Shown piece after piece: positions 18,609-47,523 of a DNA stretch of 64,000 nucleotides. The notes beneath the pieces were generated by a model, which saw only the letters and a list, made by a program, of their open reading frames with translations, did no database searches and had not been told where the DNA came from. The stretch's first letter is position 1, and each line of letters starts with the position of its first letter. A program made the translations under genes and the position numbers. The stretch is taken from positions 2,689 through 66,688 of IMG/VR virus record IMGVR_UViG_3300005804_000111, one strand, 5' to 3'. The stretch is from a virus.

Positions 18609-18623
18609 ATGCCTACCATATGC

Positions 18624-26968: not shown

Positions 26969-27248
26969 CTTGTCTCTTTCCTCCGCTGCTTCTGCGCGGG
27001 CCATTACCGCGCACATGGCGCAGATCCCGCTTTTGCTATTCGTTAATCCTGAGCACCCTGCGCACAGCCCGTACAGTCCAGGTAATACTGCACCTTCGCC
27101 ACCGCCTGCCGCTTTATGCAGGTCTCGTGCGAGAGCGTGCCGCAAAGGTTCGTGCAGAAAAAGGTGTCAGTCAGTTTCAATCGTTCGTCCTTTCGGCCAT
27201 CGTCAGTTGCCGCTTCACGGCAAGACGGGGATTGCTCCCCGTTTCGGC

Positions 27249-28034
27249 CTAATGCACCTGAATCACCATCCAGTTATCAGCAATGCCTTTTCTGAACTCT
27301 TCGATCTCGCGAATGAGCGCATCACGGCGAGTGCGAATATGTGTCGGGTTTATGAGTTTGAATGTCGCTTTCTCGTTCTCAGACTTCGGGATCTCGATTT
27401 CCATATCCAGCAGGAATTCCGTGGTCAGTTTTGAACCTTCGAAGTATGGTCCTCTGAACGTGATACGCTTCGGCAGTGTCGCCGTCTGGTTGCCTCCACG
27501 ACGCTCCTGATAGATGAAGGTATGGTTCAACGGATCGACATTGCTCTCAAAGTCCTTGATCGTTTGAACCTGAAGAAGCTCAATATAAGGAAGAAGAGTG
27601 CGCCCCTCGGCAATTACATCAGGGAAAGTTTCAATGGCTTTGACCAGGTTCTTTTGTGAAAACACGGCTCCGGGTCCATCTCCGCAGAATGCCTTCAGTT
27701 CGAGCGAAGGAACGAATGAGTACTGAACAAACTCAACGCGATTGTTGGCATCGAAATAGGCTTTGATGCTGCTATCATCAAACAGGATAATGCCACTGGT
27801 TGCGTCCATGTAACGGTTAATAAATGAGACCATGCTCTGCGTGTCTGCCAACTTATGCTCTCTGTTCTTGTGGATATAGATGGGTGTCGGAGTCGGCTTT
27901 GTAACTTCCTGATACGTAGTACCGTTACGGACAAAGAAGCGTTTGCCATAGACAGGATCCTCGATCTCAAAGTGATCTCCCATCTGATCAACAATTCCGC
28001 TCACCATCATCTTCATTTCAGTGTTCTCTGCCAT
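27249..28034 (-). CDS. DUF2303-like phage protein
   Basis: Typically paired with the upstream small gene; LPK.ITF..P.FEG. Confidence 0.5.
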   Translation of the reverse strand: MAENTEMKMMVSGIVDQMGDHFEIEDPVYGKRFFVRNGTTYQEVTKPTPTPIYIHKNREHKLADTQSMVSFINRYMDATSGIILFDDSSIKAYFDANNRVEFVQYSFVPSLELKAFCGDGPGAVFSQKNLVKAIETFPDVIAEGRTLLPYIELLQVQTIKDFESNVDPLNHTFIYQERRGGNQTATLPKRITFRGPYFEGSKLTTEFLLDMEIEIPKSENEKATFKLINPTHIRTRRDALIREIEEFRKGIADNWMVIQVH

Positions 28035-28035
28035 A

Positions 28036-28380
28036 CTATTTCTCTCCTCCCTGTGCTTTTTTCATCTGAATGACGTTCTCCGGCAGCTCCAGCATGTCGG
28101 GCTGAGTTGCGTCGTTGCTAAAGGTGTCGATCTGCAGCACACCTTCCTTCATGCTCGCAAAGGTTCTGATCTCGCGATTCGGCGTATTGCAGGTGCAGCT
28201 CATATCCACTTCCACATAGCCGCGTGTGTTCGGTTTGAACTTCATCTTCATGGTGATCGTCCGCTCTCCGGAAAGATCACTGTCCTTTTCCATTGAGGTT
28301 TCTACTGCAGCAAGCGCTTCGGAAAACATCGCCTGCATTTTCGTTTCACTCAGTGCTGCCAGCGTCAAATCTTTCAGCAT
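28036..28380 (-). CDS. Conserved phage early protein
   Basis: R.IT.K.KFKP motif; RBS GGAGG. Confidence 0.55.
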   Translation of the reverse strand: MLKDLTLAALSETKMQAMFSEALAAVETSMEKDSDLSGERTITMKMKFKPNTRGYVEVDMSCTCNTPNREIRTFASMKEGVLQIDTFSNDATQPDMLELPENVIQMKKAQGGEK

Positions 28381-28539
28381 GTAGCCTCCCGTGCTACGTT
28401 TATGATCGGAGCTATTATCCGGATATCTGCTCCGTGCTTCTTTTCGGTGGAATGATCTGGAGCAGGAATCACTGCTCTTTCACCCGCGCTTACAGCGCAT
28501 ACCTGGCACGATCCCGGACTCCTCGGGGTATCCCATTAA

Positions 28540-28941
28540 TCAAAACGGTTCCAGGTCCGTTATTTCATCGGGCGGGGTCTGGTCTGCACCGCCCGCCGAT
28601 CCGCTGCTGCTGCCTCCGGGCTTGCTGCCGAGGAAGCGCACATTGCTTGCCACAACTTCTTTTTTGTTGAACTTCTGCCCGTCCTTTTCCCAGCGGCGCT
28701 CGCGGAGGCGTCCCTCTACTAGCACAGGCCTGCCCTTCGTGAGATACTGCCCGCAGTTGTCCGCCTGCTTTCCGAAGACCACGCAATCAATAAAGAGCGT
28801 TTCTTCCTTCGTGTTTCCGTCCGCGCCTTTCGTTCGGCTATTTACTGCGAGGCCGAGCGTTGCCACTGGAGTACCGCCCGGCGTATAGCGCACTTCAGGG
28901 TCTTTCGTGAGATTGCCTATAAGGATGACGCGGTTAAACAT
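28540..28941 (-). CDS. ssb: Single-stranded DNA-binding protein
   Basis: MFNRVILIGNLTKDPEVRYT; acidic tail DEITDLEPF. Confidence 0.96.
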   Translation of the reverse strand: MFNRVILIGNLTKDPEVRYTPGGTPVATLGLAVNSRTKGADGNTKEETLFIDCVVFGKQADNCGQYLTKGRPVLVEGRLRERRWEKDGQKFNKKEVVASNVRFLGSKPGGSSSGSAGGADQTPPDEITDLEPF

Positions 28942-29749
28942 GCTGCTCCTTCTTAACATACGCCACAATCATTTTCTCCCCATCAAAATACACCAGATAC
29001 CCGGCCAGCCACAGGTCAACGACCGCCTCATACGGATTTTTCCGGAGCGACATTTTATCAGCGACAACGGCCCAAGCGGCGTCCAAAGCGGCGGCCCAAG
29101 CGGCGTCCCAAGCGGCGTCCAAAGCGGCGGCCCAAGCGGCGGCCAAAGCGGCGGCCCAAGCGGCGGCCCAAGCGGCGTCCAAAGCGGCGGCCCAAGCGGC
29201 GTCCCAAGCGGCGTCCCTAGCGGCGTCCCAAGCGGCGTCCCAAGCGGCGGCCCTAGCGGCGGCCCTAGCGGCGTCCCTAGCGGCGTCCCAACTGCCGAAC
29301 ACTTTCGTCTCTGCGAAAATTGCCGCCTTGGTAAACGGCTTGTGTCTCCTGATAACTTCATTCATGAGCCGTGCGGGGCAGGGCTTTGTTGCGGTAAAGT
29401 AAAGGCCGGGCTGTTTTAATCTCTCAATTTTTGCCAGCACCTTTTTATAGTTCGGGCCATATATTCTGTGCTTGTTCAGCTCCTTTACTACTACCAGTTC
29501 AGACACGCGCATCTTCGAATCATCGCGCCCGATAATGTTCTTCTTATCGATCTTCACCTCAAACAGCCGACCGGGTTTGTTATGCCCGGACGCATGCCAT
29601 GGTGTGGGCGATACATGGTACCCACGCCCGCAGGGTCCATTATGAGACCTGTCCGGATCAGGATGCACCATCGTCTTTCCAACCTCATATAAAACCGTTC
29701 CGGTGTAATAATCACAGCCCTGATCATTTACTATCTTATACGCCTTCAT
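28934..29749 (-). CDS. Phage protein with an N-terminal C..G.H domain and (W/R/L)(D/A)AA repeats
   Basis: CGRGYH motif followed by 18 tetrapeptide units. Confidence 0.85.
   Translation of the reverse strand: MKAYKIVNDQGCDYYTGTVLYEVGKTMVHPDPDRSHNGPCGRGYHVSPTPWHASGHNKPGRLFEVKIDKKNIIGRDDSKMRVSELVVVKELNKHRIYGPNYKKVLAKIERLKQPGLYFTATKPCPARLMNEVIRRHKPFTKAAIFAETKVFGSWDAARDAARAAARAAAWDAAWDAARDAAWDAAWAAALDAAWAAAWAAALAAAWAAALDAAWDAAWAAALDAAWAVVADKMSLRKNPYEAVVDLWLAGYLVYFDGEKMIVAYVKKEQHV
29063..29290 (-). repeat. Coding 12-bp tandem repeat (18-19 units)
   Basis: ccaagcggcgtc-type units. Confidence 0.9.
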
Positions 29750-29934
29750 AGTGTTGCCCTCTCCACTTCCAGCATCGGGTCAACTTTTTCGCGGAGAATG
29801 TGCGTTGCGCTGTCGGCAAAGCTTGCGACGCACTCGGTCAAGAATGTGTCCAAGTCGGCATAGTCGAGGTTCTGCCGAAGCCGGTCGAGCTTCTTCAGCG
29901 TCTTATAGTCAATGTTTATGGTCAGTATCGGCAT
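29746..29934 (-). CDS. Small ribbon-helix-helix-like protein
   Basis: LTINID..TLKKLDRL pattern. Confidence 0.5.
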   Translation of the reverse strand: MPILTINIDYKTLKKLDRLRQNLDYADLDTFLTECVASFADSATHILREKVDPMLEVERATL

Positions 29935-30094
29935 CAGAAGTTCTCCGAGTAAAATGCCTCTAGGTAATCCGCAAGCTCGGCTTTGTTGAAAACACCGCCG
30001 TCGCCGGTCTCGTCGTTGAAAATGATGATCTTCTGTTCATCGAAATCCTTGACCGTGAATTTCCCGATCCGGATCGTTGGAAGTGAAGGAGCGA

Positions 30095-30367
30095 TCACTT
30101 CCATACTTTCCTCATGCCTTCATCGCCGGCTCCCGCTATCTGCACGTTCATGTTTCCATCTTGGCGCGGAATCATTTTAATGTTGCTGTTCACCAAGTAG
30201 AACGGCCGACCCTCTGCTATCGCTATGCGCATGTCGAGCCGGAGCTCCTGCAGCATGTCATCCTTTGCAGAGTCGTATGCGCTGTCTATCACCATCATCA
30301 TGCCCGATGCAAAGCCGAGCACGGCTGAAGACACGGCAATCAATATGTATGTGCAGCATTTTTTCAT
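30095..30367 (-). CDS. Membrane-anchored hypothetical protein
   Basis: N-terminal TM segment; RBS GGAGG. Confidence 0.55.
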   Translation of the reverse strand: MKKCCTYILIAVSSAVLGFASGMMMVIDSAYDSAKDDMLQELRLDMRIAIAEGRPFYLVNSNIKMIPRQDGNMNVQIAGAGDEGMRKVWK

Positions 30368-30630
30368 AGGGCCTCCTTGTACTGGCATTTCGAGCATTTG
30401 CGCCAGCCGGTCGCCTGCCGCGCACGGCAGACTGGTGTATGGATACGGTGGCCGCGAACACACTCGCGGAAGCCGTTGTCGGAAAAGGTGACGGAGCTGG
30501 CCGGCAAGGCCTGCACCTTCTCCGTCGAGCTATCGGTTTTGAAACATAGCGTGGACACTGACGGTTTTTCGGGCCGTCTCCCGTATTTCCGCGCCAAGGG
30601 CGCGGTTGTGCTGAGTGCTATCGTGCTCAC
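30364..30630 (-). CDS. Hypothetical protein with a Cys-rich C-terminus
   Basis: ATGA overlaps within the early operon. Confidence 0.5.
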   Translation of the reverse strand: MSTIALSTTAPLARKYGRRPEKPSVSTLCFKTDSSTEKVQALPASSVTFSDNGFRECVRGHRIHTPVCRARQATGWRKCSKCQYKEAL

Positions 30631-30995
30631 TTTGATCGCGCTTTCTGCCGCGCAATCCTGTCGGCCGCAAGGCGCATATCAATAATCTGGTGGTACCGTT
30701 TCTTTGTCTCGATCTTCTCCATAGCACGGTCTGTTTTGCTCACACCGGCCCGTTCCATCGAAGCTGCTGCCAGCCCCTGCAGATGCTCATTCACATGCGT
30801 CAATATGAACCGGCGCGGTTTACCGAAGCCCCCCATGCGTCGGGAGTGTTGGTTCAGGAAGCTCTTCGTCAGGTGGTACTGCTGCATAAGGTATGCATCG
30901 TCCACCACAATGATGGTGGCAGGGGCCGCAGGGTCGACCCCTGCCGATGCAGAGGGGCAGGAGGTGCTGCTATGGTGGGGGGTATATCGTGGCAT
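30627..30995 (-). CDS. Hypothetical DNA-binding-like protein
   Basis: Operon overlaps. Confidence 0.5.
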   Translation of the reverse strand: MPRYTPHHSSTSCPSASAGVDPAAPATIIVVDDAYLMQQYHLTKSFLNQHSRRMGGFGKPRRFILTHVNEHLQGLAAASMERAGVSKTDRAMEKIETKKRYHQIIDMRLAADRIARQKARSK

Positions 30996-31228
30996 CAGAA
31001 CAGGCGCTCCAGCCGGTACTGATAAACACCTTTTTTAATGCATTTGCAGTCTATGTCGATGCCGTTGTCCCTGAGTTCCTCAACGATGGAATTGACCGCA
31101 CAGACTCCGGCTTCCTGCGCGATTTGCAGCGTTGTCTTTGGACCGCGCAACAGGCAGGTGTAAACCCGCTGCAGGCGGTCGCTCTTTTCAATCCGTGCAC
31201 TGTGCATTTTCCCGGTGCGTGTGCTCAT
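30995..31228 (-). CDS. Small winged-HTH protein
   Basis: TTLQIAQEAGVCAVNSIVEELRDNGIDI. Confidence 0.65.
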   Translation of the reverse strand: MSTRTGKMHSARIEKSDRLQRVYTCLLRGPKTTLQIAQEAGVCAVNSIVEELRDNGIDIDCKCIKKGVYQYRLERLF

Positions 31229-31419
31229 GGCAGCAGCTCCCCTATGCCTTCGATCTCCCCAAGTCCGCACTGCACGCGAAGCGAGTTGACCGCGATCATC
31301 TCTGCGGGCGTCATAGCATCAATGTGAATACCACCGTCGAGGATCCGGCACAGCACATCGTGCTGCGTCTCGTCCAGATAGACGAGCCTCTGCCAGCTTC
31401 GTGCGATAGGCTGCATCAT
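31225..31419 (-). CDS. Hypothetical protein
   Basis: ATGA overlaps at both ends. Confidence 0.5.
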   Translation of the reverse strand: MMQPIARSWQRLVYLDETQHDVLCRILDGGIHIDAMTPAEMIAVNSLRVQCGLGEIEGIGELLP

Positions 31420-31883
31420 TCCCGAACCTCGGCAGATTTCTCGGCATCGTGGATAAGCGTAAGAATCGCCCGTACCGCATGCATACCCTCCTTGCGGATG
31501 CGCTTTGCTTCCTCGCGGTCCACATTACCATCGCCGATTGCTTTGGTTACCTCCTGTGCTATGTCTCCGAATTCCTTCACAGCAAGGATCATATCAGTCG
31601 TGATATTTGTGCAGTCACATCTCGGGATAGGCAGCGCGAGGATGCCGAATTGCTCGGCAAGGTAATGTAGTGGGGCAAGCGCTTCTGGGTTCTTCAGATC
31701 CTGAGCGGTGCTGATGATCGTCTCAATCCTGTCGACTGGGTTATATGCACCGCTGTCGGTGAAATCGGTGTGCGGCTCCTGCCACTTACTCACAAGCGAA
31801 GTGCTCACACCCAAACGCTTTGCGTGTTCGATCGTTTTTCCGGCTATTGCCGCCTGAATGGATTCGTATGATTTCATGCCCAT
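31416..31883 (-). CDS. CII-like phage regulatory protein
   Basis: AKRLGVSTSLVSKW..P HTH; KEFGD...A..DG.VD..E...I.KE. Confidence 0.75.
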   Translation of the reverse strand: MGMKSYESIQAAIAGKTIEHAKRLGVSTSLVSKWQEPHTDFTDSGAYNPVDRIETIISTAQDLKNPEALAPLHYLAEQFGILALPIPRCDCTNITTDMILAVKEFGDIAQEVTKAIGDGNVDREEAKRIRKEGMHAVRAILTLIHDAEKSAEVRE

Positions 31884-32111
31884 ACCCTGCGGTTACGAAT
31901 GCTGCTGAAGGTTGTAATTGCGAGGGGAAAAAGGAAATGCGAAACTGAATCAAGATGATATATAATGTTGACAAAATATTTTTCATATCCGGCAGCCAAG
32001 GTGGCCCGTACCGTGACGGGAGAGGACCACCATGACTGCCTCTGCGAAACAGGCCTGAAGCGTTGGGGACGGTTCGGCCCGGTTGCATGTGAACGATGAA
32101 AGGATGAGCAT

Positions 32112-32294
32112 ATGGACTTAAAAGCACAAATCGAATGCCCCAACTGTAAAAAGGAAATCAGCATCATAATGAAGACAGGCGGCTCGATCAGTCCCAAAGC
32201 CTGCCGACACTGCAAGGCAGAAATTGTCTTGTCGGAAAAGAGCATGAAGTCTCTCAAGAACATTGACGCCTCTTTGAAGAAGCTTTCCGGATGA
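32112..32294 (+). CDS. Small Zn-ribbon protein, antisense to the lytic operon
   Basis: CPNC...CRHC; AAGGA RBS. Confidence 0.55.
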   Translation: MDLKAQIECPNCKKEISIIMKTGGSISPKACRHCKAEIVLSEKSMKSLKNIDASLKKLSG

Positions 32295-32460
32295 GCTTAG
32301 TGCGGTCTTTGACCTCCAAAACGGTGATTGCTTCTGATACTGCCTTCGCCGCAGCGTCAACCTGCGAGCGGAGATTTTTGAGAGTTCTCACCAGTTCCTT
32401 TAGTGAGGTAGCTCCCCGCTGCTCAATCGCTACCTTGATGGTGACCGTTTTTTCTGTCAT
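32254..32460 (-). CDS. First lytic-side gene (cro position), no obvious HTH
   Basis: ATG at 32460 with GGGGGA RBS, downstream of a strong promoter. Confidence 0.55.
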   Translation of the reverse strand: MTEKTVTIKVAIEQRGATSLKELVRTLKNLRSQVDAAAKAVSEAITVLEVKDRTKLIRKASSKRRQCS

Positions 32461-32491
32461 TTTTCCCGTCCCCCGTGGTGTTCTTGGTTCA

Positions 32492-32520
32492 ATATTATAC
32501 CCGTCACGGGTAATTGTCAA
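32492..32520 (-). promoter_or_regulatory. Lytic promoter with operator palindrome TACCCGT-C-ACGGGTA (32498-32512)
   Basis: TTGACA-17 bp-TAATAT; perfect 7-bp inverted repeat in the spacer; variant near 32009-32021. Confidence 0.7.
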
Positions 32521-32547
32521 GGGTATTTTTGCATTAAATTTTCTTAT

Positions 32548-33012
32548 ATGCGTATAAAAGAATTTGCAAACAGAATAAGAAATGAACGCTGGGCCAGAAA
32601 GCTCAACCAGACGAAATTCGCGTCTCTGGTCGGCGTTACTCAGTCTACGATTTCGGCCTGGGAGCGAGCTGAGTTTGTGCCTGACATACCGCAATTAATC
32701 GTGACCGCTAACAGACTCGGGCTCAATCCGGCATGGCTCGCACATGGCGAGGGTGATAAATTTGCATCTCACGCAGCCGAAGATCAGTCGCCCTACACTG
32801 CAGATCCGCTCGCCGCTGAACTTCTCGACGTTATTTCCGAGCTCGACCCCGATGACCGCGCACGCATATTGGCCGAAGCAAAAGACCGGCTACTATTAAA
32901 GAAGCTGAAGGAGCAGATAGACCGTGCTCAACCCGGCGGCGGCAGCGAGGAGCGACACGCTCCTACCCTTCCGCCGCAGCAAGCGAAGAAAGGTAGACGA
33001 GAGACAGCTTAG
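32548..33012 (+). CDS. Prophage A repressor (Xre HTH, no S24 domain)
   Basis: LNQTKFASLVGVTQSTISAWER, NPAWLAHGEG; divergent from the lytic operon. Confidence 0.88.
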   Translation: MRIKEFANRIRNERWARKLNQTKFASLVGVTQSTISAWERAEFVPDIPQLIVTANRLGLNPAWLAHGEGDKFASHAAEDQSPYTADPLAAELLDVISELDPDDRARILAEAKDRLLLKKLKEQIDRAQPGGGSEERHAPTLPPQQAKKGRRETA

Positions 33013-33171
33013 CCTTCGGCTCTGGCCATGCCCGGCAGCAGCTGAAACGGCAGACCTACTTGCGCGTCTGCTGAATGTCATCTATAATGGTGAGTGCATC
33101 CACTGCGGCGGCTGCCGCAGATCGCGTATAAAACACCACGTAACCGTCATTGTGCGTGACTACTACGGAGG

Positions 33172-33642
33172 ATGAGAATGATAAGACTTGTTGCACTGCT
33201 CTTAGCGATATTAATGATCTGCGGGTGCGCCACGTTTGGCCCTGCGCCGTCTGAGCCTGAGTATTCCAAGGCAATCGAAAAACTGCCCGCTGCAAAAACT
33301 GCGGTTTATATAATGGAGGCAGCTTGGTATCCGAATATCGTCCTCGGGGACATGTCCTCTTTCCATGCGCAGAGCAATGCCGGATCTCTATTTGTTACGC
33401 CTGAGCAGCTGGTATTTGCAGCATACGACAGCGCCACTGATCGATTCCTGCAGTCATTTTCAGCGTCCTATGCCGATATGGGATGGCTCACAACAAAACA
33501 GCACGGTTTGTCGCGGATTATCCGCGTACAGATCAATAACAGTGTCCACAGCTTCCTTTTTGCCAGGGGGCAGAAAAGCAACGGTGAGGATGCCGACAAG
33601 GACGAGGTTATGCAGTTTGTTCTGAACAAGGGGAAAAAATAG
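33172..33642 (+). CDS. Lipoprotein with a PH-like domain (lysogenic conversion/exclusion candidate)
   Basis: Lipobox MICGC; GSLFVTPEQLVF. Confidence 0.7.
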   Translation: MRMIRLVALLLAILMICGCATFGPAPSEPEYSKAIEKLPAAKTAVYIMEAAWYPNIVLGDMSSFHAQSNAGSLFVTPEQLVFAAYDSATDRFLQSFSASYADMGWLTTKQHGLSRIIRVQINNSVHSFLFARGQKSNGEDADKDEVMQFVLNKGKK

Positions 33643-33649
33643 AGAAGCC

Positions 33650-34291
33650 ATGGAGCAGGCCCTTGTCATAATCATTGTGCTCATCGGGGTCGGTTTCTGG
33701 ATCAAAACCATCAGAAAAAACGAAAAAGAGTCCCGCGCCCGACAACTCTCAGCTCCGCGTATGGAAGCTATCCATCATACAAAGGCTTATTTTGCAGATA
33801 TCAATACCACACACCGCATCCCCGAAGTGTCCACCGATATACTGCTGGACCCCGGAGAAAAGGCTTACCTCTATGACGATCACGTTTCCTTACTCGAAAT
33901 GCGGGCAGCGAGGAAAACAGAGACCGTTGGAGCTGGTGTCCGAGTGCTCAAAGGAGTTTATGTCGGCGGCGCGAGCGGAACGTCCAGGGCTTACGACGAA
34001 CTATGCGAGATCGGCAGCGGTACACTCACGCTTACCAACAAAAGAATAATTTTCAACGGTGCATCCAATCCGCGCAATATACCCCTGCAAAATATCATAG
34101 CGGTCAACGAGAGCAGTGAGATAATAGAAATCTCATTAAAAAACCGAATCAAAAGCATGTATTTCACCGGGGTGGACAATGCTATCCTTTGGAAATCGCT
34201 CGTACAGTTCATTCGAGCTCTGCCACCCGATGGATCAATCCCCCATGTGGATATAGAAATCCAGTACTGGAAGGATAATGTCAGTTTATAA
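33650..34291 (+). CDS. Membrane-anchored PH-like protein
   Basis: N-terminal TM segment; GTLTLTNKRIIFNG. Confidence 0.7.
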   Translation: MEQALVIIIVLIGVGFWIKTIRKNEKESRARQLSAPRMEAIHHTKAYFADINTTHRIPEVSTDILLDPGEKAYLYDDHVSLLEMRAARKTETVGAGVRVLKGVYVGGASGTSRAYDELCEIGSGTLTLTNKRIIFNGASNPRNIPLQNIIAVNESSEIIEISLKNRIKSMYFTGVDNAILWKSLVQFIRALPPDGSIPHVDIEIQYWKDNVSL

Positions 34292-35426
34292 GCGCGGAAA
34301 ACACTGGTATATAAACGTCATCGTTGGCGGGGTGCGCATCCATCGCAAGGGCGGCCGCACAAAGGCTGCTGCCGAGCAGATTGTTGAGGAGTTACGCACG
34401 GACGCCCGACGCAAGAAACTCTCGTTGCCTCGCATTATCGACGACGCCGAGACGCCGTTCATTTACCTGGCTGAAGAATATTTTCTCCGCGCTGCAGCGG
34501 TCAAGGCATTAAGTACGTACAAAGTAGAACGCAATTTTTACGATAATCATATCCGCCCGTTTTTTGAGGACACCATGGCGTCCGACATTAGCGACCCTCT
34601 GCTGCTCGATTTCCAGACCTATCTGTGCTCAAAACAGGTCGTACGCGGCTATCAGCCCAAAGATCCAGCTATAGTGCGCCCTACGGCCCCTATGGGGCCC
34701 AGAACGGTCAATATTTGCGTCGGTATCGTGCGAAAGATCATCAACCACGCCGTGCAAAAGACACTCATGCACGCAACCACATTCAAGTACCCGCACCTCA
34801 AAGAGCCGAAGCGGTTGCACTCCTTTTTCACCTTTGAGGAGTGGGATGCTTTACTCGATGCAGCGCGTGAAATACACCCGGAGATTGTCGACCGCATCGA
34901 GATTGCCCGCGACGCAGGACTGCGCCCCGCAGAGCATGCGTACCTGGCATGGGCAAGCGACATAGACCTGCACAACCGTATCATCCGCATTACCGGCAAG
35001 CCCGGCCTGTGGGAGCCGAAAACGTGGGAAGAGCGTGTCATACCTATGACCGCCAATGCCTACGCCATCTTGAAGCGCCGGCGGAAGGTGCGCCAGGGGC
35101 CGTGGGTGTTCAGCGATGGTCCTGCGCCAGTTATTGATATCGGGAAATCACTCTCCGCATGCGCGGAGCATGCCGGTATTGAAAAGAAGGTCGGGCCGAA
35201 CATGCTGCGCCACACGTTTGCAACTCACGGGCTCATGGGCGGCATCAAGAGCAAGTCGATCTCCGAGCTTATGGGACACAAAGATGAGCGCACCACGGCG
35301 CGTTATATACACGCAATTCAGGATGGACTCGCTCAGGAAATCGCATTGCTGGACCGGAAAAAACAACCCCGCCGAGGTAAAACGGTCGCCACAAAGTCGC
35401 CACACCAAAAAAAGAAGGCCTCCTGA
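34278..35426 (+). CDS. int: Tyrosine integrase of prophage A
   Basis: N-terminal arm-binding beta sheet; GLRPAE, PKT, NMLRH, MGH, ARY. Confidence 0.93.
   Translation: MSVYKRGKHWYINVIVGGVRIHRKGGRTKAAAEQIVEELRTDARRKKLSLPRIIDDAETPFIYLAEEYFLRAAAVKALSTYKVERNFYDNHIRPFFEDTMASDISDPLLLDFQTYLCSKQVVRGYQPKDPAIVRPTAPMGPRTVNICVGIVRKIINHAVQKTLMHATTFKYPHLKEPKRLHSFFTFEEWDALLDAAREIHPEIVDRIEIARDAGLRPAEHAYLAWASDIDLHNRIIRITGKPGLWEPKTWEERVIPMTANAYAILKRRRKVRQGPWVFSDGPAPVIDIGKSLSACAEHAGIEKKVGPNMLRHTFATHGLMGGIKSKSISELMGHKDERTTARYIHAIQDGLAQEIALLDRKKQPRRGKTVATKSPHQKKKAS
35385..35404 (+). repeat. Arm-type repeats GTCGCCACA x2 (11-bp pitch)
   Basis: gtcgccacaaagtcgccaca inside the 3' end of int. Confidence 0.7.
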
Positions 35427-35436
35427 TTGGAGGCCT
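35407..35436 (-). terminator. Intrinsic terminator downstream of the tRNA 3' end
   Basis: AGGCCTCC-N5-GGAGGCCT followed by a T-run on the minus strand. Confidence 0.75.
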
Positions 35437-35454
35437 AAGTCATTGTTTTTAAAA

Positions 35455-35500
35455 GAGCGGGCGACGAGATTCGAACTCGCGACCTTCAGCTTGGGAAGCT
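35455..35500 (-). pseudogene. 3' half of tRNA-Gly(CCC), att core
   Basis: AGC-TTCCCAA-GCTGA-AGGTC-GCGAG-TTCGAAT-CTCGT-CGCCCGC-TC; D arm and 5' acceptor strand absent. Confidence 0.92.
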
Positions 35501-35566
35501 ATTTTACATCCCCTAACTTCATTTATTTTCAACGACTTATCAGGTGCAAAAACGGTCAAAAAAGGG

Positions 35567-35779
35567 TTATTTCTGTGAAAAGTCCCGACATTTTCCCGAC
35601 ATCAGATATTTTGCCACGCTCTGCAATTTCCCCGGATCAAGGACGCCTCTCGCAATCGCCTTTCTGACAGCATGAGTCGTAACCTTTTTTGCAGAGGCAA
35701 TTTCCGGGATCGTATAATGATACTTTCGATGCCCTTTACCGCCACGCCATTGAGTGCCTTTGAATGCACTCTCGCTCAT
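35567..35779 (-). CDS. Excisionase-like small HTH protein
   Basis: YTIPEIASAKKVTTHAVRKAIARGVLDP; points at the att core. Confidence 0.6.
   Translation of the reverse strand: MSESAFKGTQWRGGKGHRKYHYTIPEIASAKKVTTHAVRKAIARGVLDPGKLQSVAKYLMSGKCRDFSQK
35583..35601 (+). repeat. Arm-type repeats TCCCGACA x2 (11-bp pitch)
   Basis: gtcccgacattttcccgaca to the right of the core. Confidence 0.65.
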
Positions 35780-36084
35780 TCACCCTCCAACATTTCGTTG
35801 AGCTTGTCAGCGCATGTTCCGTAATAGCAATCATTACTCACATCGCAGTTAATGTTTCTCAGCCCCAGTTCATACTCAGCTTTCCATATCAAAAATTGCT
35901 TCATCATCTCGTTGGTGATCTTCGGCACAGTGCGGGTGTTCCATCTTCGGAAAACATCGCAATAGACTTTGCTCACTCCGGTAATGTAACAGTCTTTTTT
36001 ATGTCGTACCATTAAATACAGTTCCCCTTTTGTTCTAGGAGATGCAATGGTTCCACAAAACGGGCATGGTTTCAGTTCACTCAC
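35776..36084 (-). CDS. Lar-like restriction alleviation protein
   Basis: ELKPCPFCG...RRWNTR. Confidence 0.65.
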   Translation of the reverse strand: MSELKPCPFCGTIASPRTKGELYLMVRHKKDCYITGVSKVYCDVFRRWNTRTVPKITNEMMKQFLIWKAEYELGLRNINCDVSNDCYYGTCADKLNEMLEGE

Positions 36085-36443
36085 TCTTGACCTCCTATCG
36101 CTCTTTTCAGTTCTATCAATGTGCAGTCCTCGCCATCTGCAAGATACAGATTGTCGTTAATTGTTTTTGCAATGGCAGAGCGTAACTTCTCGTTCTCATC
36201 TTCGATTAGAGCGCACCGCTGAATCAGTCCGCCAACATGCGCTTCTGATGCGAATAGTGCGGCTTTCTGGACGGCGATTTCACCATCCAATTGCGCCAAC
36301 ATCTTGATATAATCAAACTTGATACGCGCATTCTCAGCCCTGACGGTTGCAAGTTCTTGTTCTAAATAATACAGCTCTTCACATCTTATCGAACAAAAGC
36401 CGTGGATTCTGTCTTCTTCAGCACTGCACCTTTTACAGTTCAT
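36081..36443 (-). CDS. Hypothetical Zn-finger/coiled-coil protein
   Basis: CKRC..C...C followed by heptads; RBS GGAG. Confidence 0.6.
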   Translation of the reverse strand: MNCKRCSAEEDRIHGFCSIRCEELYYLEQELATVRAENARIKFDYIKMLAQLDGEIAVQKAALFASEAHVGGLIQRCALIEDENEKLRSAIAKTINDNLYLADGEDCTLIELKRAIGGQE

Positions 36444-36555
36444 CACTTCTCCTTTCTCTTCTCTGCCCTTCAAATAGGCCCAGACCCCCAACCTCCGCAC
36501 CTGTAAAATACTTCTCTCTCATTACTGTAGCCTTCCTGTCGTTTTTGCGTTCATA

Positions 36556-37392
36556 CTAGCTTCTTCTCCACGGCAGATCATTATGCTCCCGGCCATCAAG
36601 CAGGCGGCCTGATTGACGCATCCAGTCGTAATCAGTCAGCACTGCGTCATTCATGAGTATTTGGTGCATAGACCCCGTATGCTCTTTTGAATCTGGATAC
36701 CATCGTCCCCACGATTTGAAAAAGAACGGAACTCCCGCTGCTTCACACTGATTACGGACAGATCGCGCCCAATCGGGATGCATCGGCCTTGCGTTCGGGC
36801 CGGTCTCGCCGCCGAGAAGGACACCATTACTTCTTCCCCCTATAGCCCTCAAATCCACCGGCCCCAACATCGGCTCAATCAGCAATCCGACCTTGCCGGG
36901 AATCTGCAATGCATACGGTATGCGCTTGTCTGCCATCTCCTGATTTTCGACGGTGACGAGGTGGTAGACGTTCAAAGTATGCGAGCATGGATTTCCCTCT
37001 TCGTTCACCATATAATCGGAATCGCCAAATGCAGCGGCTCTCTTTGCGCGTTTAGTGACAATTAGAAATGTGTGCTGACGCGCTCTCCACATTACCCTGA
37101 ATGCGCTGGCGATCTGCTCATCAGTCACCGCCTCATGGTACAAGTCCGACCACACTGCAAACACAGTCGGCTTCTTCGTCCGCATGGGAAGGTCGAGACG
37201 ATCAGAGCGAAAAATAACCGTTCCGTTAAATACTCCTGCTTCGTCTGTCAAAATACCGCTACTATGCCCCGGCTCCACTTCGCGTGCAAATCTATTCGCC
37301 AATGCCGCCAGCCAGCAGTTATCGCACCCGGCACTGACCGGAGTGCAGCCCTCAACGAGTGACCATGCCTTATCCCAAAATTTTCCGCTCAT
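36556..37392 (-). CDS. DUF5131 family protein, copy B
   Basis: First 90 aa identical to copy A; same downstream motifs. Confidence 0.88.
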   Translation of the reverse strand: MSGKFWDKAWSLVEGCTPVSAGCDNCWLAALANRFAREVEPGHSSGILTDEAGVFNGTVIFRSDRLDLPMRTKKPTVFAVWSDLYHEAVTDEQIASAFRVMWRARQHTFLIVTKRAKRAAAFGDSDYMVNEEGNPCSHTLNVYHLVTVENQEMADKRIPYALQIPGKVGLLIEPMLGPVDLRAIGGRSNGVLLGGETGPNARPMHPDWARSVRNQCEAAGVPFFFKSWGRWYPDSKEHTGSMHQILMNDAVLTDYDWMRQSGRLLDGREHNDLPWRRS

Positions 37393-37648
37393 TTCTTCGG
37401 CACCCCCTTCTCGGTTTCCAATCCCGACAACCGAATTTTGTAGGTTCATACTCAAATCCGTGTCTGAGTACGCATGTCAGTTCGTGTGCAAATGGTTTTA
37501 ATTCTTCTTGGCAGGTGCTGCACGGCCCGATCACCTTCATACCCTTCTGAAGTTCGATAGTGACAGTGTTGCCATAATTAGCCATGCCGAGAGAATGGGC
37601 AGCATAGCTATCTTCGTTTTTCTTTAATTTCCCCTTTGCTGTTGCCAT
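37370..37648 (-). CDS. Hypothetical protein
   Basis: Operon packing. Confidence 0.55.
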   Translation of the reverse strand: MATAKGKLKKNEDSYAAHSLGMANYGNTVTIELQKGMKVIGPCSTCQEELKPFAHELTCVLRHGFEYEPTKFGCRDWKPRRGCRRNERKILG

Positions 37649-37830
37649 TATTTATCCCTTTTCTTTTCGGCTCTTTCAACAGCATCAGCAGCTTTCCGCA
37701 GGCATGTTGCAAGCCCCTCCTCCCGAATATGGGAGAATTTACAGATGAGTTCATAGTTTATTCTCAACTCGTACTTCTGACGACCTGTTGGTGCTACGTT
37801 ATTTGAGACATTACGGATAATTATTGCCAT
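37648..37830 (-). CDS. Conserved small phage protein
   Basis: RBS GGAGG; H.REEGLA.CLRKAA. Confidence 0.6.
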   Translation of the reverse strand: MAIIIRNVSNNVAPTGRQKYELRINYELICKFSHIREEGLATCLRKAADAVERAEKKRDK

Positions 37831-37967
37831 CAAGCCTCCTTCATCTTCGCATGTTAGTAACCGGACGTGCCGCTTACCTTGGCGTTGTGCGTCAAAATTT
37901 GCCATGCCCGCCAAATTGTCGCGCTCCAATTGACATGGAGCCAGTGTGATGTTGTTCGCGTCCGGCG

Positions 37968-38561
37968 TTATGTGTCGCCCCACTGTTGTGCCATTGCCTC
38001 GGCAATGCCAATGTAGGTGCGGCTTCGGTCTTTCCACCTGTCAGGTCTTGGTGAGATGTAATACAGCCGTTCCCGCTCCCGCTTTGGCAGCTTCATCATT
38101 TCCAACTTAACTACGTTTGTTGGCTTTAGCGGAGGCAACTCCTCAAGCCAAAGACACGTTGCCTTCTGCTCCATGTGACCGAACATCCAAGGCTGTATTA
38201 CTTGCGTCTTGTCTCTCCCCACCCGCTCCCTTGCGTACTTGTGCATGATCGGGTTCTCGATGCATTTGCGCCCAATAGGTGCGTTCAGCAGCTTTCTAAA
38301 AAAAGCCGCCCCCTCATCTAGTTTTGCCCATCGTTCAGGATCACGATGTAGCCATACAACACCGCTATTTGTCAGATATGTGCATGATGGAAAAGCAATC
38401 ATCATATCCCATCCATCATTAAGAACTTCCAAAACATCCCCCTGGATGTGCGGCCCTGGCTTCTCAGACGGAAGAATATCGCACGACACCGCATCATGTC
38501 CGCGCTGAATGAAAGCATCCCGCACGGTTCCACTAAATTCGCAAGCGATCAGGATTTTCAT
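37968..38561 (-). CDS. Phage DNA cytosine methyltransferase-like protein
   Basis: ILIACEFSG.VRDAF, SCD, FPSCT, IENP, RSRTY.GIAEAMA.QW. Confidence 0.8.
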   Translation of the reverse strand: MKILIACEFSGTVRDAFIQRGHDAVSCDILPSEKPGPHIQGDVLEVLNDGWDMMIAFPSCTYLTNSGVVWLHRDPERWAKLDEGAAFFRKLLNAPIGRKCIENPIMHKYARERVGRDKTQVIQPWMFGHMEQKATCLWLEELPPLKPTNVVKLEMMKLPKRERERLYYISPRPDRWKDRSRTYIGIAEAMAQQWGDT

Positions 38562-39603
38562 TATCTACCCTCTTCCCAAACCTGTCGCACTCATACAACA
38601 CCTTTCCTTTTCTGAATGCTATTTTATGCGGATATGAAGGGTTTTCCCATTCATGCAAATCTTTAATATTGACTTTTATAGCTACATACCTGTCTCCTGC
38701 AGTAGACCGAAACTCGTTACAGAAATATGGTCGGTGGCATGCATGAAACTTCCCCGATCCGCATTCTTGTTTAGTAGGATTCCATGCGTGATGCGTGAGA
38801 GTAGAGCCAATCGTCCATAGTGTTTCATGTTCTGTGTTTTCCATTGTTTTAAAATCTTTCGACACGCGCTTATAGAGAATTACATGACCGTTTTTTACGA
38901 CAACCCCATTACGCTCAAGATATGGCAACGGCTTTATTTTTTGTATTGCTACTGTCTTAGCTGCCGTGTATTTCAACTCATCACATTCTGATGAGATGAT
39001 TAGGACACAAAAACAATGTAATACAATATTTGGGCGACCTGAAATTGCTCTCACTACTGCGCTGTCCCAAGCCTCTACCGAACTGTTGTCCCAAGCTACG
39101 ACCGAACTGTTGTCCCTAGCTACGACCGAACTGTTTCCCCTAGCTACGACCGAACTGTTTTTCTTAGCTATGACCGAACTGTTTCCCCAAGCCTCTACCG
39201 AACTGTTGTCCCAAGCTACGACCGAACTGTTGTCCCTAGCTACGACCGAACTGCTTTCCCAAGCTACGACCGAACTGTTGTCCCAAGCTACGACCGAACT
39301 GTTTCCCCTAGCTACGACCGAACTGCTTTCCCAAGCTACGACCGAACTGTTTCCCCAAGCCTCTACCGAACTGTTGTCCCTAGCTACGACCGAACTGTTT
39401 CCCCTAGCTACGACCGAACTGTTTTTCTTAGCTATGATTTTACTTGAGCATGTGAGAGGTGTTGCAACCTCCAAAGTCCCAAATACCGTCAACTCTGCAT
39501 TGAGAGTAAGCGACGACTCTGCGCGGATATACACAGCCTCGTCTTTTTTTACGCACAATATTCCATCAAGCTGTTCTTGTGTTGAGATAACTCTTTTTTT
39601 CAT
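38533..39603 (-). CDS. Octapeptide-repeat (NSSVVARG) protein with a C-terminal C..G..H domain
   Basis: 15 repeats, then ECGSGKFHAC. Confidence 0.85.
   Translation of the reverse strand: MKKRVISTQEQLDGILCVKKDEAVYIRAESSLTLNAELTVFGTLEVATPLTCSSKIIAKKNSSVVARGNSSVVARDNSSVEAWGNSSVVAWESSSVVARGNSSVVAWDNSSVVAWESSSVVARDNSSVVAWDNSSVEAWGNSSVIAKKNSSVVARGNSSVVARDNSSVVAWDNSSVEAWDSAVVRAISGRPNIVLHCFCVLIISSECDELKYTAAKTVAIQKIKPLPYLERNGVVVKNGHVILYKRVSKDFKTMENTEHETLWTIGSTLTHHAWNPTKQECGSGKFHACHRPYFCNEFRSTAGDRYVAIKVNIKDLHEWENPSYPHKIAFRKGKVLYECDRFGKRVDNENPDRLRI
39064..39423 (-). repeat. Coding 24-bp tandem repeat (15 units)
   Basis: ctacgaccgaactgtt-type units with no spacers. Confidence 0.92.
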
Positions 39604-43364: not shown

Positions 43365-43640
43365 ATGCAAAAAGGCGACAAAAAGAAACTGCGGAAAATC
43401 CTTGATGAATTGCATGATTGCGGTCAAGAACTTGAACAGCTCCGGGATCGTATGCAAGAGCGTGTTGATAAACTCCGGGAACGCTACGATAACATGAGCG
43501 AAAGAGCGCAAGAATCGGACAAGGGCCAATCACTCGAACAAGAGATTTCGGACGACGACGATACAATAAGCAGTATCGAAGAAATTATGAATAATCTGGC
43601 ATACGCCGAAGATGCAAGGCCAAGCGAAAATGAGGAATAA
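43365..43640 (+). CDS. Small acidic helical protein
   Basis: RBS AAGGA; YDNMSE..QESDKGQ..E motif. Confidence 0.7.
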   Translation: MQKGDKKKLRKILDELHDCGQELEQLRDRMQERVDKLRERYDNMSERAQESDKGQSLEQEISDDDDTISSIEEIMNNLAYAEDARPSENEE

Positions 43641-43776
43641 AAATGAATAAAACAAAGAGTAACCCGGTAACTTTTCCAGAGCGTGCCGGGTTACTCAATA
43701 CGCCAAACATAACGGACATACCCGCTATGCTCTTTTAGAGTATCGGGTATGCCGGGAAAAATCAAGAGGTTGCTAT

Positions 43777-45192
43777 ATGTTTACCATTACCGATACCAAA
43801 AAATTTAAAGCCGCGCATAAAATCGCCCTTGCTGCAATCGACAAAAAAAGCGCCATGCCGATATTGCAGCACATTCGATTTTTCAGCAATGAACGGGGCG
43901 CGTTTATCGGCTCTACTGATTTAGAGACAGCGGTAACAATCGATATTGCAGACACAATCGAGTATTCAGCACCGTTTGATTTCCTTGTCCCGTATAAACC
44001 TCTGTCCGAAGCACTCAAGACACAAAAGAGCGGGTTCTCTGTATCGGGAGTGCAGAATGAAGACGGAAACCCATATGAAAAAATCGGCGCTCTGACTGTT
44101 CAGACGTTGCCGGTCGATGAATTCCCTATCGTCCCGGATGTAAATGCTATTCCGGCCAGTATCGGCAATTTGTCAGAGACGATCAAACAGGTACTTTATG
44201 CTGCTGGCGAAAACGATGTCAGATATACACTTAACGGGGCATTGTTCGACATTTCGGAAAAGCGGTGCGTTTGTACAGACGGACACCGTATGGCAATTGT
44301 CCCGCTCGACATCTGTAATTGGTTTACCAAAAACAAGGTAATTATTGCCCGGAAAACCTGCGAACTGCTTGCCATGATTCCCGGAAATCCCATGGCGAAA
44401 ATCGAAAAAGGGAAGGCTATTTTTATCTTTGACAAGCAAACAGGTTCACCGGTTAATGCCGAAATTTATACACGTTTGAGTGATGGCAGATATCCCGATT
44501 ACAAACAGGTCGAGACACATGCTATAAAATCAAATAAAACGCGCATGACCGTTAATCGCGCCGATTTTCTGGCAGCTCTTGATATTGTATCGGGAGTATT
44601 GGAGCGAAAATGGCATAATCTCGCAAATCTCTATTTTTACGAAGGAAACGCCGTGCTTTATGCCAACCATCCCAATAACGGAACGGCACGCGCAACAGTA
44701 CAGGCCGAATATACCGGAAATGAAACTGATCCGGCAATCACTATCAATGTGCGCTTCCTGAAAGAATACTGCAATGCAATGTCAGGCGATACGGTAACGC
44801 TCGTTATAAATGAGCCGCTTTCTCCCATCTTACTATATGATGGCACCGAATCAGTATCAATCATTATGCCGGAACCAGGAAATGGCGCACGCGCCGAACA
44901 AGACCGTCTCTATATGGAATTTCCGGCACATATCAAAGCGGAAATGCAGGAACGTATCAGTCACAACCGCATTACCCGGAAACTGGCAGAGCGGAAACAG
45001 AAACAGGCACGCGCTGACATGCTGAAAAATCGCGCTGACGCTCTGGTATATGCCGGGGCATTTCTCAAGGCGCTAAAAATTTATCAAGGTATTGGTGCAA
45101 TCATGCAGTATCATGAGCTTTTGACATGTTTGCCAGATTTGGTAAAAATGGCAGCTCCAGATGGCCGGGAAAGCCTGCGGAATGCAGCATAG
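43777..45192 (+). CDS. DNA sliding clamp (DnaN-like) with a ~100-aa C-terminal extension
   Basis: MPILQH, STDLE, DEFP, DVRYTLNG, TDGHRMA, GRYPDY, NVRFL, SPILL...IIMP. Confidence 0.88.
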   Translation: MFTITDTKKFKAAHKIALAAIDKKSAMPILQHIRFFSNERGAFIGSTDLETAVTIDIADTIEYSAPFDFLVPYKPLSEALKTQKSGFSVSGVQNEDGNPYEKIGALTVQTLPVDEFPIVPDVNAIPASIGNLSETIKQVLYAAGENDVRYTLNGALFDISEKRCVCTDGHRMAIVPLDICNWFTKNKVIIARKTCELLAMIPGNPMAKIEKGKAIFIFDKQTGSPVNAEIYTRLSDGRYPDYKQVETHAIKSNKTRMTVNRADFLAALDIVSGVLERKWHNLANLYFYEGNAVLYANHPNNGTARATVQAEYTGNETDPAITINVRFLKEYCNAMSGDTVTLVINEPLSPILLYDGTESVSIIMPEPGNGARAEQDRLYMEFPAHIKAEMQERISHNRITRKLAERKQKQARADMLKNRADALVYAGAFLKALKIYQGIGAIMQYHELLTCLPDLVKMAAPDGRESLRNAA

Positions 45193-45203
45193 CGGGGGGC
45201 GAT

Positions 45204-45401
45204 ATGAAAAAGCGCGTCAATAAATGGCTGTACGGATGGCGATTTTATGTTAATTACGGGGCCGGATGGGAGTATGAAACATTCGAGACAACATGGAAAG
45301 GCATGATAGAAAATCGTCGGGCCTATCGGGAAAATTGCCCGTATCCGCTCAAAATATCGCGGGGCCGGGAAAAGAATAATCAGTATCAGGGGGCGCTATG
45401 A
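45204..45401 (+). CDS. Small aromatic-rich early protein
   Basis: NYGAGWEYE motif; GGGGG RBS. Confidence 0.6.
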   Translation: MKKRVNKWLYGWRFYVNYGAGWEYETFETTWKGMIENRRAYRENCPYPLKISRGREKNNQYQGAL

Positions 45402-45609
45402 TATACCTCGACCTCGTTTTAATCATTGCCCTTGTCTCGTTCGCGGTCTGGTATGAATGGGGACGCTTATGATTCCGGCATTGCTGCAATATCAGGCTGA
45501 ATTTATGGCCGGAACGATAACGCTTGACGCTCTGAACGAGCACGCGAAAAATGCCCCGGTATCAGAGCGCCAAGAATTAACTGAAATAGAAAATTGAAAG
45601 GAATAAACC

Positions 45610-45882
45610 ATGACAACATATACAGCAACATACAGCCCGGAAGATAACAAACTCAGACTTTCAGCAAGCACGCGCCTTGATGCAGAGACATATGCGCGGG
45701 TAAAAGAAGCCGGTTTTATTTGGGCGCCAAAGCAAGGAATTTTTGTTACCCTGTGCGCCAACGGGCCAAGACAGCGCGAAGCATTCCGGGATCAGGCCGT
45801 ATATTGGGAAGATTTGCCGCCCGGCAGCTTCAAAGAGCAGGGAACGGGCGTCAATGTTGCCCTGATGGTATTGGAGGGATAG
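45610..45882 (+). pseudogene. In-frame deletion relic of a DUF3560 + methyltransferase gene
   Basis: N-terminus ATYSPEDNKLRL...GFIWAPKQ joined to C-terminus CANGPRQ...DLPPGSFKEQGTGVN. Confidence 0.75.
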
Positions 45883-45885
45883 GCT

Positions 45886-46116
45886 ATGAAATTTTTGCGC
45901 CAAATATTAAATGATGATACAATGGGGCTTGACCGGAACGCATGGGAGAGAATCGAAGCCCCGACACGAAGCGCGGCAATTGCTCAGGGTTTGACGTGCA
46001 TTCCGGCTGAAAGGTTTTTCGTATGGATTGCAGACGACAAGCCGGGTAATAAATGGCCCGATGGTTCGCCCTTTTGCGCGTATAAATTTGAACTTGCGGT
46101 CATGAAGGAACGATAA
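45886..46116 (+). CDS. Hypothetical protein
   Basis: RBS GGAGG; operon packing. Confidence 0.55.
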   Translation: MKFLRQILNDDTMGLDRNAWERIEAPTRSAAIAQGLTCIPAERFFVWIADDKPGNKWPDGSPFCAYKFELAVMKER

Positions 46117-46935
46117 ATGCTGATCCGGGACATCATAAGCGATACTCTTGAGAGTATCAAAAAGCCAAATACTTTGGCTTCGTATCGGGATACGCTTGAA
46201 CCCTTCGGCCAGATATTCGGCAACCGGGATACTGGGGAAATTCTACCGGCTGAAATTCGGGCATACCTCGAAGGATTGCCCGTATCAAATAGCACCAGGT
46301 ATCTGCGGTATGCACATATCAAAGTACTGTTTAATTCCGCTTTATCCTCATTGAAAGAAGCCCGTATCGCGGCAACATGGGAAAACCCATGCCATGCCAT
46401 CTCGGAGCACTTCGGCAAGCCGAAAAAAAACAGCGTGCCGCTATCTGATACGATTCATGCCGATATGCAGTGCGTAGAATCGCGCCTGAGATTCAAGCAC
46501 AGGCTCATTTATGCGCTTGGTACAAGGGGCGCACTGAGAGTATCGGAAATCCTCAAAATAACGCCTCTTGACCTTCTGAGGCACGGAAACACATGCTGTA
46601 TTCTGTTGGACGCGCCGAAATCGGGCGCGGATCGGGAAATTGCGGTAATTCCGGCTGATTTGTTCGACGTGCTGGCCGGATATGTCGATCAGGCCGGTAT
46701 CGGGCCAGATCAGCGTATTTTCCCTATGACACGTCAGGCAGTATGGCAGGTTTTCCGGGGTAAAGGGATCGCGCCCCACGATTTGCGCCGGTATGCTGCA
46801 TTCCGGGCTATGGAAATGGGGAAAAACCTTAAAACAATTCAGCAAATGTTGAGACATTCTGCAATATCGACGACTGAGCAATATATTAAAAACATGAGCG
46901 TATCGGCACTGGCCGAACAATTGGAGGGCATGTAA
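46117..46935 (+). CDS. Tyrosine recombinase (XerC-like, no arm-binding domain)
   Basis: ALRVSE, PKSG, HDLRR, LRH, EQY: full catalytic set. Confidence 0.9.
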   Translation: MLIRDIISDTLESIKKPNTLASYRDTLEPFGQIFGNRDTGEILPAEIRAYLEGLPVSNSTRYLRYAHIKVLFNSALSSLKEARIAATWENPCHAISEHFGKPKKNSVPLSDTIHADMQCVESRLRFKHRLIYALGTRGALRVSEILKITPLDLLRHGNTCCILLDAPKSGADREIAVIPADLFDVLAGYVDQAGIGPDQRIFPMTRQAVWQVFRGKGIAPHDLRRYAAFRAMEMGKNLKTIQQMLRHSAISTTEQYIKNMSVSALAEQLEGM

Positions 46936-47124
46936 ATGAAAAACTACGCAAATGCTCAATGTGCGCTCTGGTCAATTACGGGCGCGACTGCAACAACAAT
47001 CCGGCAAGGGAGGAATAAAGCAATATGTTGAGCGTAATGATATTTCTTGCAGTCTTGGTATGTATCATGAATCTTTTTGCCAAAAGCCGAACATAGGGCC
47101 ACTGCATGAGTGGCCCCGCCCGGC

Positions 47125-47523
47125 CTATACCCGGATCAGGTATATCGTCCCAATGAGCAACAGTTTATTCGTATCGAACGCTACAAGGTCAATCGGGACA
47201 TCTTTTGTAACGTCGAACATAACGAGGATGTTTTGCACCCCGTCAAAGAAGTATATCGGCGTCCCGGCATCGCAATACGCTTGCAGCACGGCTTTATTGG
47301 CCGGAGTTATTGCACCGGGATCGCCGGTCAGTTTCAGAACGATAGGTTGCCCGGTTAGCGATTTCGGGAACGACTGAATAACCGCGCTGCCGTCAATCAT
47401 GCGATGTATCGAGCCGGTACGCTGACTGCTTTTGTATTCATCGTCCCATATAGGATCAGAGGCGAAATACACGCCTCCAAGCGTCATGACACCATGCGCG
47501 GAACTGTCAAAAATATATTGCAT
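47125..47523 (-). CDS. Tail-associated protein
   Basis: Last gene of tail module B. Confidence 0.55.
   Translation of the reverse strand: MQYIFDSSAHGVMTLGGVYFASDPIWDDEYKSSQRTGSIHRMIDGSAVIQSFPKSLTGQPIVLKLTGDPGAITPANKAVLQAYCDAGTPIYFFDGVQNILVMFDVTKDVPIDLVAFDTNKLLLIGTIYLIRV

Follow-up and report, generated by a model that had tools for sequence, protein, structure and literature searches.

Two different temperate phages very probably share an internal att junction in tandem at one tRNA-Gly(CCC) gene

The att systems of lambda-type tyrosine integrases comprise arm-type sites and depend on a directionality factor. Tandem prophages at one tRNA gene, together with composite circles, are already published for M. 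abscessus and B. petrii. In M. abscessus T36, T38 and T48, the prophages prophiT36-2a and 2b lie in tandem at attB-2, a tRNA-Thr; by PCR, each phage's own attP was detected both in cultures and in supernatants, whereas the composite attP was detected in cultures and was weak or absent in supernatants (PMC9934374). The islands GI1-GI3 of Bordetella petrii are located at a tRNA-Gly and yielded single and composite circles by PCR, one element being thought to have inserted into the repeat of its neighbour (PMC2717098). Islander lists 125 tandems among 3,919 islands, and crossover in the anticodon loop forms the larger class (PMC4383910).

We analysed a window of 64,000 nucleotides which belongs to a virus record of 91,251 bp, both ends of which fall on gene boundaries. 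Near its middle lies a site at which two different temperate phages in tandem at tRNA-Gly(CCC), here called A and B, very probably meet in a common internal att junction. The main features of the window are as follows.

1-35454, prophage A, continuing 2.8 kb to the left of the window
4720-7053, tape measure of A
13799-15679, protease-capsid of A
15648-17186, portal of A
18624-20771, lambda-gpA-type terminase of A
32548-33012, repressor of A
34278-35426, plus strand, intA, tyrosine integrase of A, 382 aa (PHROG_1, E 1.5e-46; PF00589)
35385-35404, plus strand, putative integrase-side arm repeats of A, GTCGCCACA twice, a pair which recurs at A's far end
35407-35436, minus strand, terminator-like hairpin (35416-35436) and T-run, supplied by A and facing the tRNA; predicted function
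35455-35500, minus strand, att core, a tRNA-Gly(CCC) 3' fragment from the anticodon stem to the acceptor end
35491-35497, minus strand, anticodon loop, putative 7-bp crossover region placed by where tRNA identity ends
35501-64000, prophage B, continuing 24.6 kb to the right of the window
35567-35779, minus strand, small HTH-like protein of B, 70 aa, candidate excisionase (HTH_17/MerR/Cox-like leads)
about 35582-35601, plus strand, distal arm repeats of B, TCCCGACA twice, pitch 11; the same pair lies in the intB tail 53 kb rightward
55249-58368, tape measure of B
from 62636, tail fibre of B

The closest counterpart is found in M. abscessus, where two different complete prophages with tyrosine integrases also occupy one tRNA with three non-identical cores, the central site is an attR/attL hybrid, DNA segments are shared and the order of arrival is undecided (PMC9934374). 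In the M. abscessus phages, however, attP lies in the repressor gene, whereas here the arms are placed within the tail of the integrase gene and within a small HTH gene; the regenerated tRNA is impaired there (PMC9934374), while both tRNA versions fold normally here, and the bacterium belongs to a different phylum from the Nitrospirota host of this array. The B. petrii islands are likewise tandem elements at a tRNA-Gly, but of the ICEclc-type conjugative kind, with highly related integrases and an 18-bp repeat of the 3' end (PMC2717098); the present elements are tailed phages whose integrases are 42% identical and whose core is of the anticodon-loop kind. Compared with the tandem tDNA arrays of Islander there is no difference in kind, resolved arm repeats and a Nitrospirota host being what is added (PMC4383910): an intact tRNA at one end, fragments in the same orientation and separate integrases are all found. 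As in the KplE1 module, a lambda-type att system, paired direct repeats surround the core while the integrase and a small HTH gene converge on attP (PMC3509656). The elements share with lambda-type att a tyrosine recombinase catalytic domain and arm repeats on both sides of each attP, but only two repeats per side are recognised, in a single orientation, and their binding and the excisionase role are putative.

At the junction itself, the two copies of GTCGCCACA start at 35385 and 35396 (pitch 11) within the last codons of intA, and those of TCCCGACA at about 35583 and 35594 (pitch 11) within the 3'-terminal part of the minus-strand ORF 35567-35779. Even when up to two mismatches are allowed, neither pair has another match in the window, against shuffle expectations of 0.00 and 0.03, respectively, and the arm pairs are not due to chance. 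Between them lies a 46-bp fragment of the 3' part of tRNA-Gly(CCC) (35455-35500, minus strand); with the A at 35501 included, identity to the host-type tRNA spans 47 bp. The 46-mer exactly matches intact tRNA-Gly(CCC) genes at four Nitrospirota loci and one Desulfocurvus locus; within the 64-kb window no intact tRNA was found. The original prediction had placed arm pairs and a tRNA-Gly(CCC) fragment here, and the uniqueness and shuffle tests together with the exact tRNA matches bear it out. Its description of different arm repeats on each side needs refinement: the motifs do differ, but as 7/9-identical variants of a single motif of the family. We first considered a plain attP with inverted arms and rejected it, as the arms are direct and come from different elements.

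Both genes which flank the core fit an att module. In IntA, the catalytic residues R216, R311 and H334 are invariant and Y343 is nearly invariant in alignment A1, and no arm-binding family was hit. IntB has 372 aa, belongs to PHROG_1 and is 42% identical to IntA. The 70-aa protein gave no Pfam or PHROG hit; language-model scores of 0.86-0.90 and a TM of about 0.6 to HTH_17/MerR/Cox clusters are leads. Its gene lies next to att, as would fit a recombination directionality factor, and a gene 91% identical to it converges on attP in a relative of B (L119, see below). The label Xis-like given to this gene is a lead and lacks a family hit.

From core to core, prophage A measures 38,303 bp and prophage B 53,089 bp. 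In addition to the genes listed above, A carries minor tail, tail tube, tail L and GpJ-like matches. The terminase, a capsid-like gene, the amidase, the repressor and intB of B all lie beyond the right end of the window; the large terminase of B differs from that of A, the putative capsid protein was recognised by language-model features only, and the portal and several tail genes gave no family hit. A complete tail module, which had been proposed for each side, is therefore well supported by matches in A and only probable in B. A helper-satellite pair of the PICI or P4 type was ruled out, as the elements measure 38 kb and 53 kb and each has a large terminase, a capsid or capsid-like gene and a tape measure. 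Only three proteins are common to the two halves, namely DUF5131, SSB and the integrase. In the DUF5131 gene, 191/192 bases are identical between B (37150-37341) and A (23403-23594) while the remainder of the gene is 75% identical; judged from these sequences, the 192-bp identity is apparently a recent exchange between the A and B phage lineages.

Several other features of the two phages deserve mention. A plus-strand block of B (43365-47377) contains a beta-clamp homologue (43777-45192, PHROG_947) and a third tyrosine recombinase of 272 aa without the long N-terminus (46117-46935, PHROG_1). Between its capsid region and amidase, B has a glycosyltransferase of family 9 and two methyltransferase genes (L125:16553-19054; about 71500-74000 of the record). 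Tandem repeats inside genes occur in B as units of ~24 bp (39061-39437, in the ORF 38533-39603) and in A as 12-bp units (29074-29280, in the ORF 28934-29749). Direct repeats with a pitch of 11-12 bp are also present at the end of the A terminase gene (window 18606-18631), and a short set of the same pitch upstream of the replication genes of B (record 83835-83905) may represent iterons.

The outer ends of the two phages carry most weight. The last 170 bp of the record comprise the tail of intB with TCCCGACA twice (pitch 11), together with a terminator-like hairpin and the first bases of a further core, so that the integrase of B does lie to the right with its own arms, as predicted. The flank beyond was reached via the gene order of related hosts, in which this tRNA adjoins ilvD and a transglutaminase-like gene; the homologue was located on a contig of 252,517 bp. 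A 21-kb Logan contig (L135) shares 260 bp with the right end of the record at 100% identity and continues without a break from the intB tail through the arms and an intact tRNA-Gly(CCC), called by ARAGORN, into ilvD; the intact tRNA expected beyond the B integrase is thereby found, followed by host DNA. The encoded IlvD is 95% identical to that of genome G313 and 91% to that of the Dissulfurispiraceae MAG G001, and the host is a Dissulfurispiraceae-like member of the Nitrospirota, an uncultured sediment bacterium. At the opposite side, a Logan contig identical to A continues 144 bp past the left end of the record into a third core and then GTCGCCACA and GTCGCCACG, which provides the further core with A-type arms that had been anticipated at the left end of A. 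The arms are alike at 8-9/9 positions within each phage and at 5-7/9 between the phages, and the far arm pairs of A and B are 109 and 110 bp away from one and the same core base. No excisionase candidate lies beside the far arm of A, where a tail-fibre-assembly gene is found 24 bp away (L124:4928-5071); a directionality factor of A, if any, is located elsewhere.

These Logan contigs of the outer ends derive from run SRR2895163, probably the source run, and represent a second assembly of the same DNA, not a replicate. In a protein collection, the A, B and host proteins found were all listed with the same longest contig, 252,517 bp, and the 91-kb record therefore is a provirus cut from a host contig. 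The intB gene (L003:12134-13252; record 90133-91251) extends across the arms and the terminator and ends in the antisense strand of the T-loop of the tRNA. We do not regard this stop as special, since it reflects an A-run one base shorter than in L119, where the integrase ends sooner.

Along the tRNA strand, the layout consequently reads ilvD, intact tRNA, intB and the rest of B, junction core, intA and the rest of A, and the third core; the host flank was found on the tRNA side, and host DNA presumably follows beyond A. The array has three cores, two related integrases and two sets of morphogenesis genes, and all four phage ends bear an arm pair. The outer cores, their matching arms and the two integrases uphold the proposed hybrid, at one tRNA-Gly, of an A arm, a core and a B arm from two prophages.

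Relatives of the two phages clarify how diagnostic the unlike arms are. The relative of B from another sample (L119) is present as attP; in it, the integrase gene is followed by TTGCGACA twice, a near-identical hairpin and the core, and the core by a second pair of TTGCGACA and the small gene of 91% identity. Its integrase is 68% identical to IntB. It follows from L119 that the right half of the junction belongs to the same attP as the right end of the record, each supplying one half. Moreover, the motif of L119 has changed together on both sides, which argues that the arm repeats are probably functional. In the MAG G001, an element of the A clade has an integrase 69-82% identical to IntA and CCCAC-type arms at both ends. 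The same tRNA-Gly in this MAG also holds a 2.3-kb relic (L111; G001:C108:2149-4479), in which nothing but a frameshifted intA-like gene separates two cores whose arms are intact. Both sides also share one motif in five loci in attP form (L013, L017, L018, L024 and L046) and in a 57-kb prophage of G184.

The statement that one attP uses one arm motif nevertheless holds as a tendency only. In an 86-kb island of G172, which has two cores and one integrase of the family, the arms read TTGCGCCA at one end and TTCCGACA at the opposite end; its attP-form relative L048 joins the same two unlike flanks. The arms of G172 and L048 differ by 2-3 bases, those of G094 by 1-2 bases. Since such single elements carry unlike arms, we rejected the mismatch as a stand-alone diagnostic, and the proof of a tandem is provided by the matching arms at the outer ends. 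The G172 island (G172:C19:405952-492098) is not a phage and is located at a tRNA-Pro. More generally, the targets of the integrase family (loci L013-L083) comprise tRNA-Gly(CCC), tRNA-Pro, tRNA-Arg and tRNA-Asp; in these loci the core may lie in either orientation relative to the gene, and the orientation of the arms follows the core.

In the integrase tree, the A clade is supported at 100/100 and has CCACA-type arms, and intB is placed weakly beside it (88/90). As TCCCGACA occurs in several separate branches and the tree is poorly resolved at depth, we make no claim about the ancestral state of the arms. Single-protein scans of viral contigs recovered no relatives of IntA or IntB, and the junction 24-mer found none either. 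The terminase of B had no match at E 1e-40 in 390 genomes of the class, in a search run without a positive control.

Three other explanations of the site have to be weighed. If the site were an ordinary attP with unlike arms, from a single large phage or circle, this would account for the layout of integrase, arms, core, arms and small HTH gene, which is that of an attP, and G172 and L048 illustrate unlike arms within one element. Yet each arm type has an exact partner at a separate outer end next to its own core, which refutes this explanation; A and B also each have an integrase, a terminase, a tape measure and a repressor of their own, the right half is linked through L119 to intB and not to intA, and the left flank of the site belongs to A while the right flank belongs to B. 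We consider a single attP hardly conceivable. Scarcely more credible is a route in which a superinfecting phage recombined homologously with a resident prophage, or in which A and B integrated as a pre-formed cointegrate, even though A and B share the 191/192-bp segment and such a route has been discussed for tandem prophages (PMC9934374). A crossover in DUF5131 would give hybrid phages flanked by the arms of one element with an attP of a single type inside, whereas each phage is here bounded by its own arms around a hybrid inner site, and a later integrase-mediated rearrangement would be needed in addition.

A mis-join of the assembly, in which a B-only lysogen and A as a free circle or virion DNA were threaded together via the repeated core, is improbable to a lesser degree. 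The 47-bp core at the junction is bridged by none of the short-word contigs of SRR2895163, which end at 35485 and start at 35472; the short-word graph permits both pairings of two entries (intA tail and host) with two exits (B arm and A arm), and the depth of A is unlike that of host and B. However, a 47-bp repeat is shorter than the reads and the larger word sizes of usual metagenome assemblers. The source assembly paired intA with B and crossed the junction in one 252-kb contig, and a depth of A below that of the host fits equally well with loss of A from some chromosomes.

The contig depths in SRR2895163 are 32.6-34.1 for A, 22.8 for the intA tail, 65.9-69.8 for B and 44.3 for the host flank L135; the 44.3x contig which joins the intB tail to the core was identified as L135 by a 38-base match. 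These depths suggest that all cells carry B and most carry A. As the depth is uneven, not every chromosome has the tandem layout, and the depth of A, about 0.75 of that of the host, is what would be expected if most chromosomes carried the tandem and a minority carried B alone. The GC content of A and the host flank (0.53 vs 0.55) does not explain the lower depth of A; that of B (0.47-0.48) may contribute to its excess. For this excess (window 35472-39095, 66-70x, compared with 44x for the host and 33-34x for A at 27000-35225), GC bias, replication in place and a second B-carrying strain are candidates. The contigs on the far arms of B and A start at the same core base without further split. 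We infer from the branching of the graph, in which minor forms would be missed, that neither empty sites nor A-only lysogens nor B circles are abundant.

The original prediction also specified the order, with A integrating first and B later into the regenerated tRNA. The sequence fits the reverse equally well, since integration of B followed by that of A at the distal att of B yields the same three junctions. The latter order is plausible, falling a little short of probable. The resident-tRNA contig is unbroken through the core, which implies that empty and A-only chromosomes are not abundant, A stands at about 0.75 of host depth, and the distal site of B keeps the anticodon loop with the adjacent TAGC. 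Both orders have been entertained for the M. abscessus tandem (PMC9934374), and insertion into the repeat of a neighbour was proposed in B. petrii (PMC2717098). On the other hand, a sweep of the tandem with A now being lost gives the same picture, and the usual target is an intact tRNA gene, which favours A first.

How the tandem might have formed and may come apart can be outlined from its parts. Both distal sites, and the relatives too, lose identity to the tRNA 3-4 bases 5' of the anticodon loop, from which we infer a crossover in the loop. By analogy with lambda-type integrases, each integrase would cross over there, and each phage would supply a new tRNA 3' half and a terminator. The junction would then serve as attR for B and as attL for A. 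The resident tRNA carries the T-arm of B and the junction that of A, with four differing positions between them which include one compensatory pair; this pair and a loop base at which they differ are both natural in this class. The distal arm of B is linked within 31-mers to a T-loop base which is not that of B, as expected for attR. A counterpart of the hairpin of A lies before the resident tRNA at the end of B, and the terminator of A would end the tRNA transcript whenever A is the element proximal to the tRNA.

For excision, A could leave through the junction and the left core with A arms only. B could leave through the resident tRNA and the junction with B arms only, and a normal tRNA with the T-arm of A would be left behind; the tRNA computed for this product folds as a cloverleaf and is called by ARAGORN. 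Joint exit would require the integrase-side arms of B and the far arms of A to be bridged by one integrase or a mixed complex, which the 7/9 identity of the arms may allow, probably with lower efficiency. The resulting 91-kb composite circle would exceed either unit genome and so would not be packaged whole. It would hold an attL/attR pair for each integrase, and either of them could resolve it into A and B. By comparison with the published tandems, single and composite excision is plausible. A more far-reaching proposal, that IntA and IntB read each other's 7/9-identical arms and the tandem behaves as one recombination unit while B is amplified in place without excising, appears unlikely. Such a unit would entail composite excision, resolution of the composite and control of one phage by the excisionase of the other; the hint of amplification in place is the 1.55-fold excess of B over the host flank with no attP path.

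The arrangement is already known and changes no general picture; its value is local. A virus record of 91 kb splits into exact phage units of 38,303 bp and 53,089 bp. Both phages are assigned to a host of the Nitrospirota, a phylum with few described phages, and a literature search for papers on Nitrospirota phages found no dedicated study. Two related integrases which share one target and have arms differing at two bases offer a ready test of cross-talk between arm sites, and they may provide an integration tool for Thermodesulfovibrionia. If the integrases do read each other's arms, the short, fast-drifting arm motif would constitute a natural series for the evolution of arm specificity.
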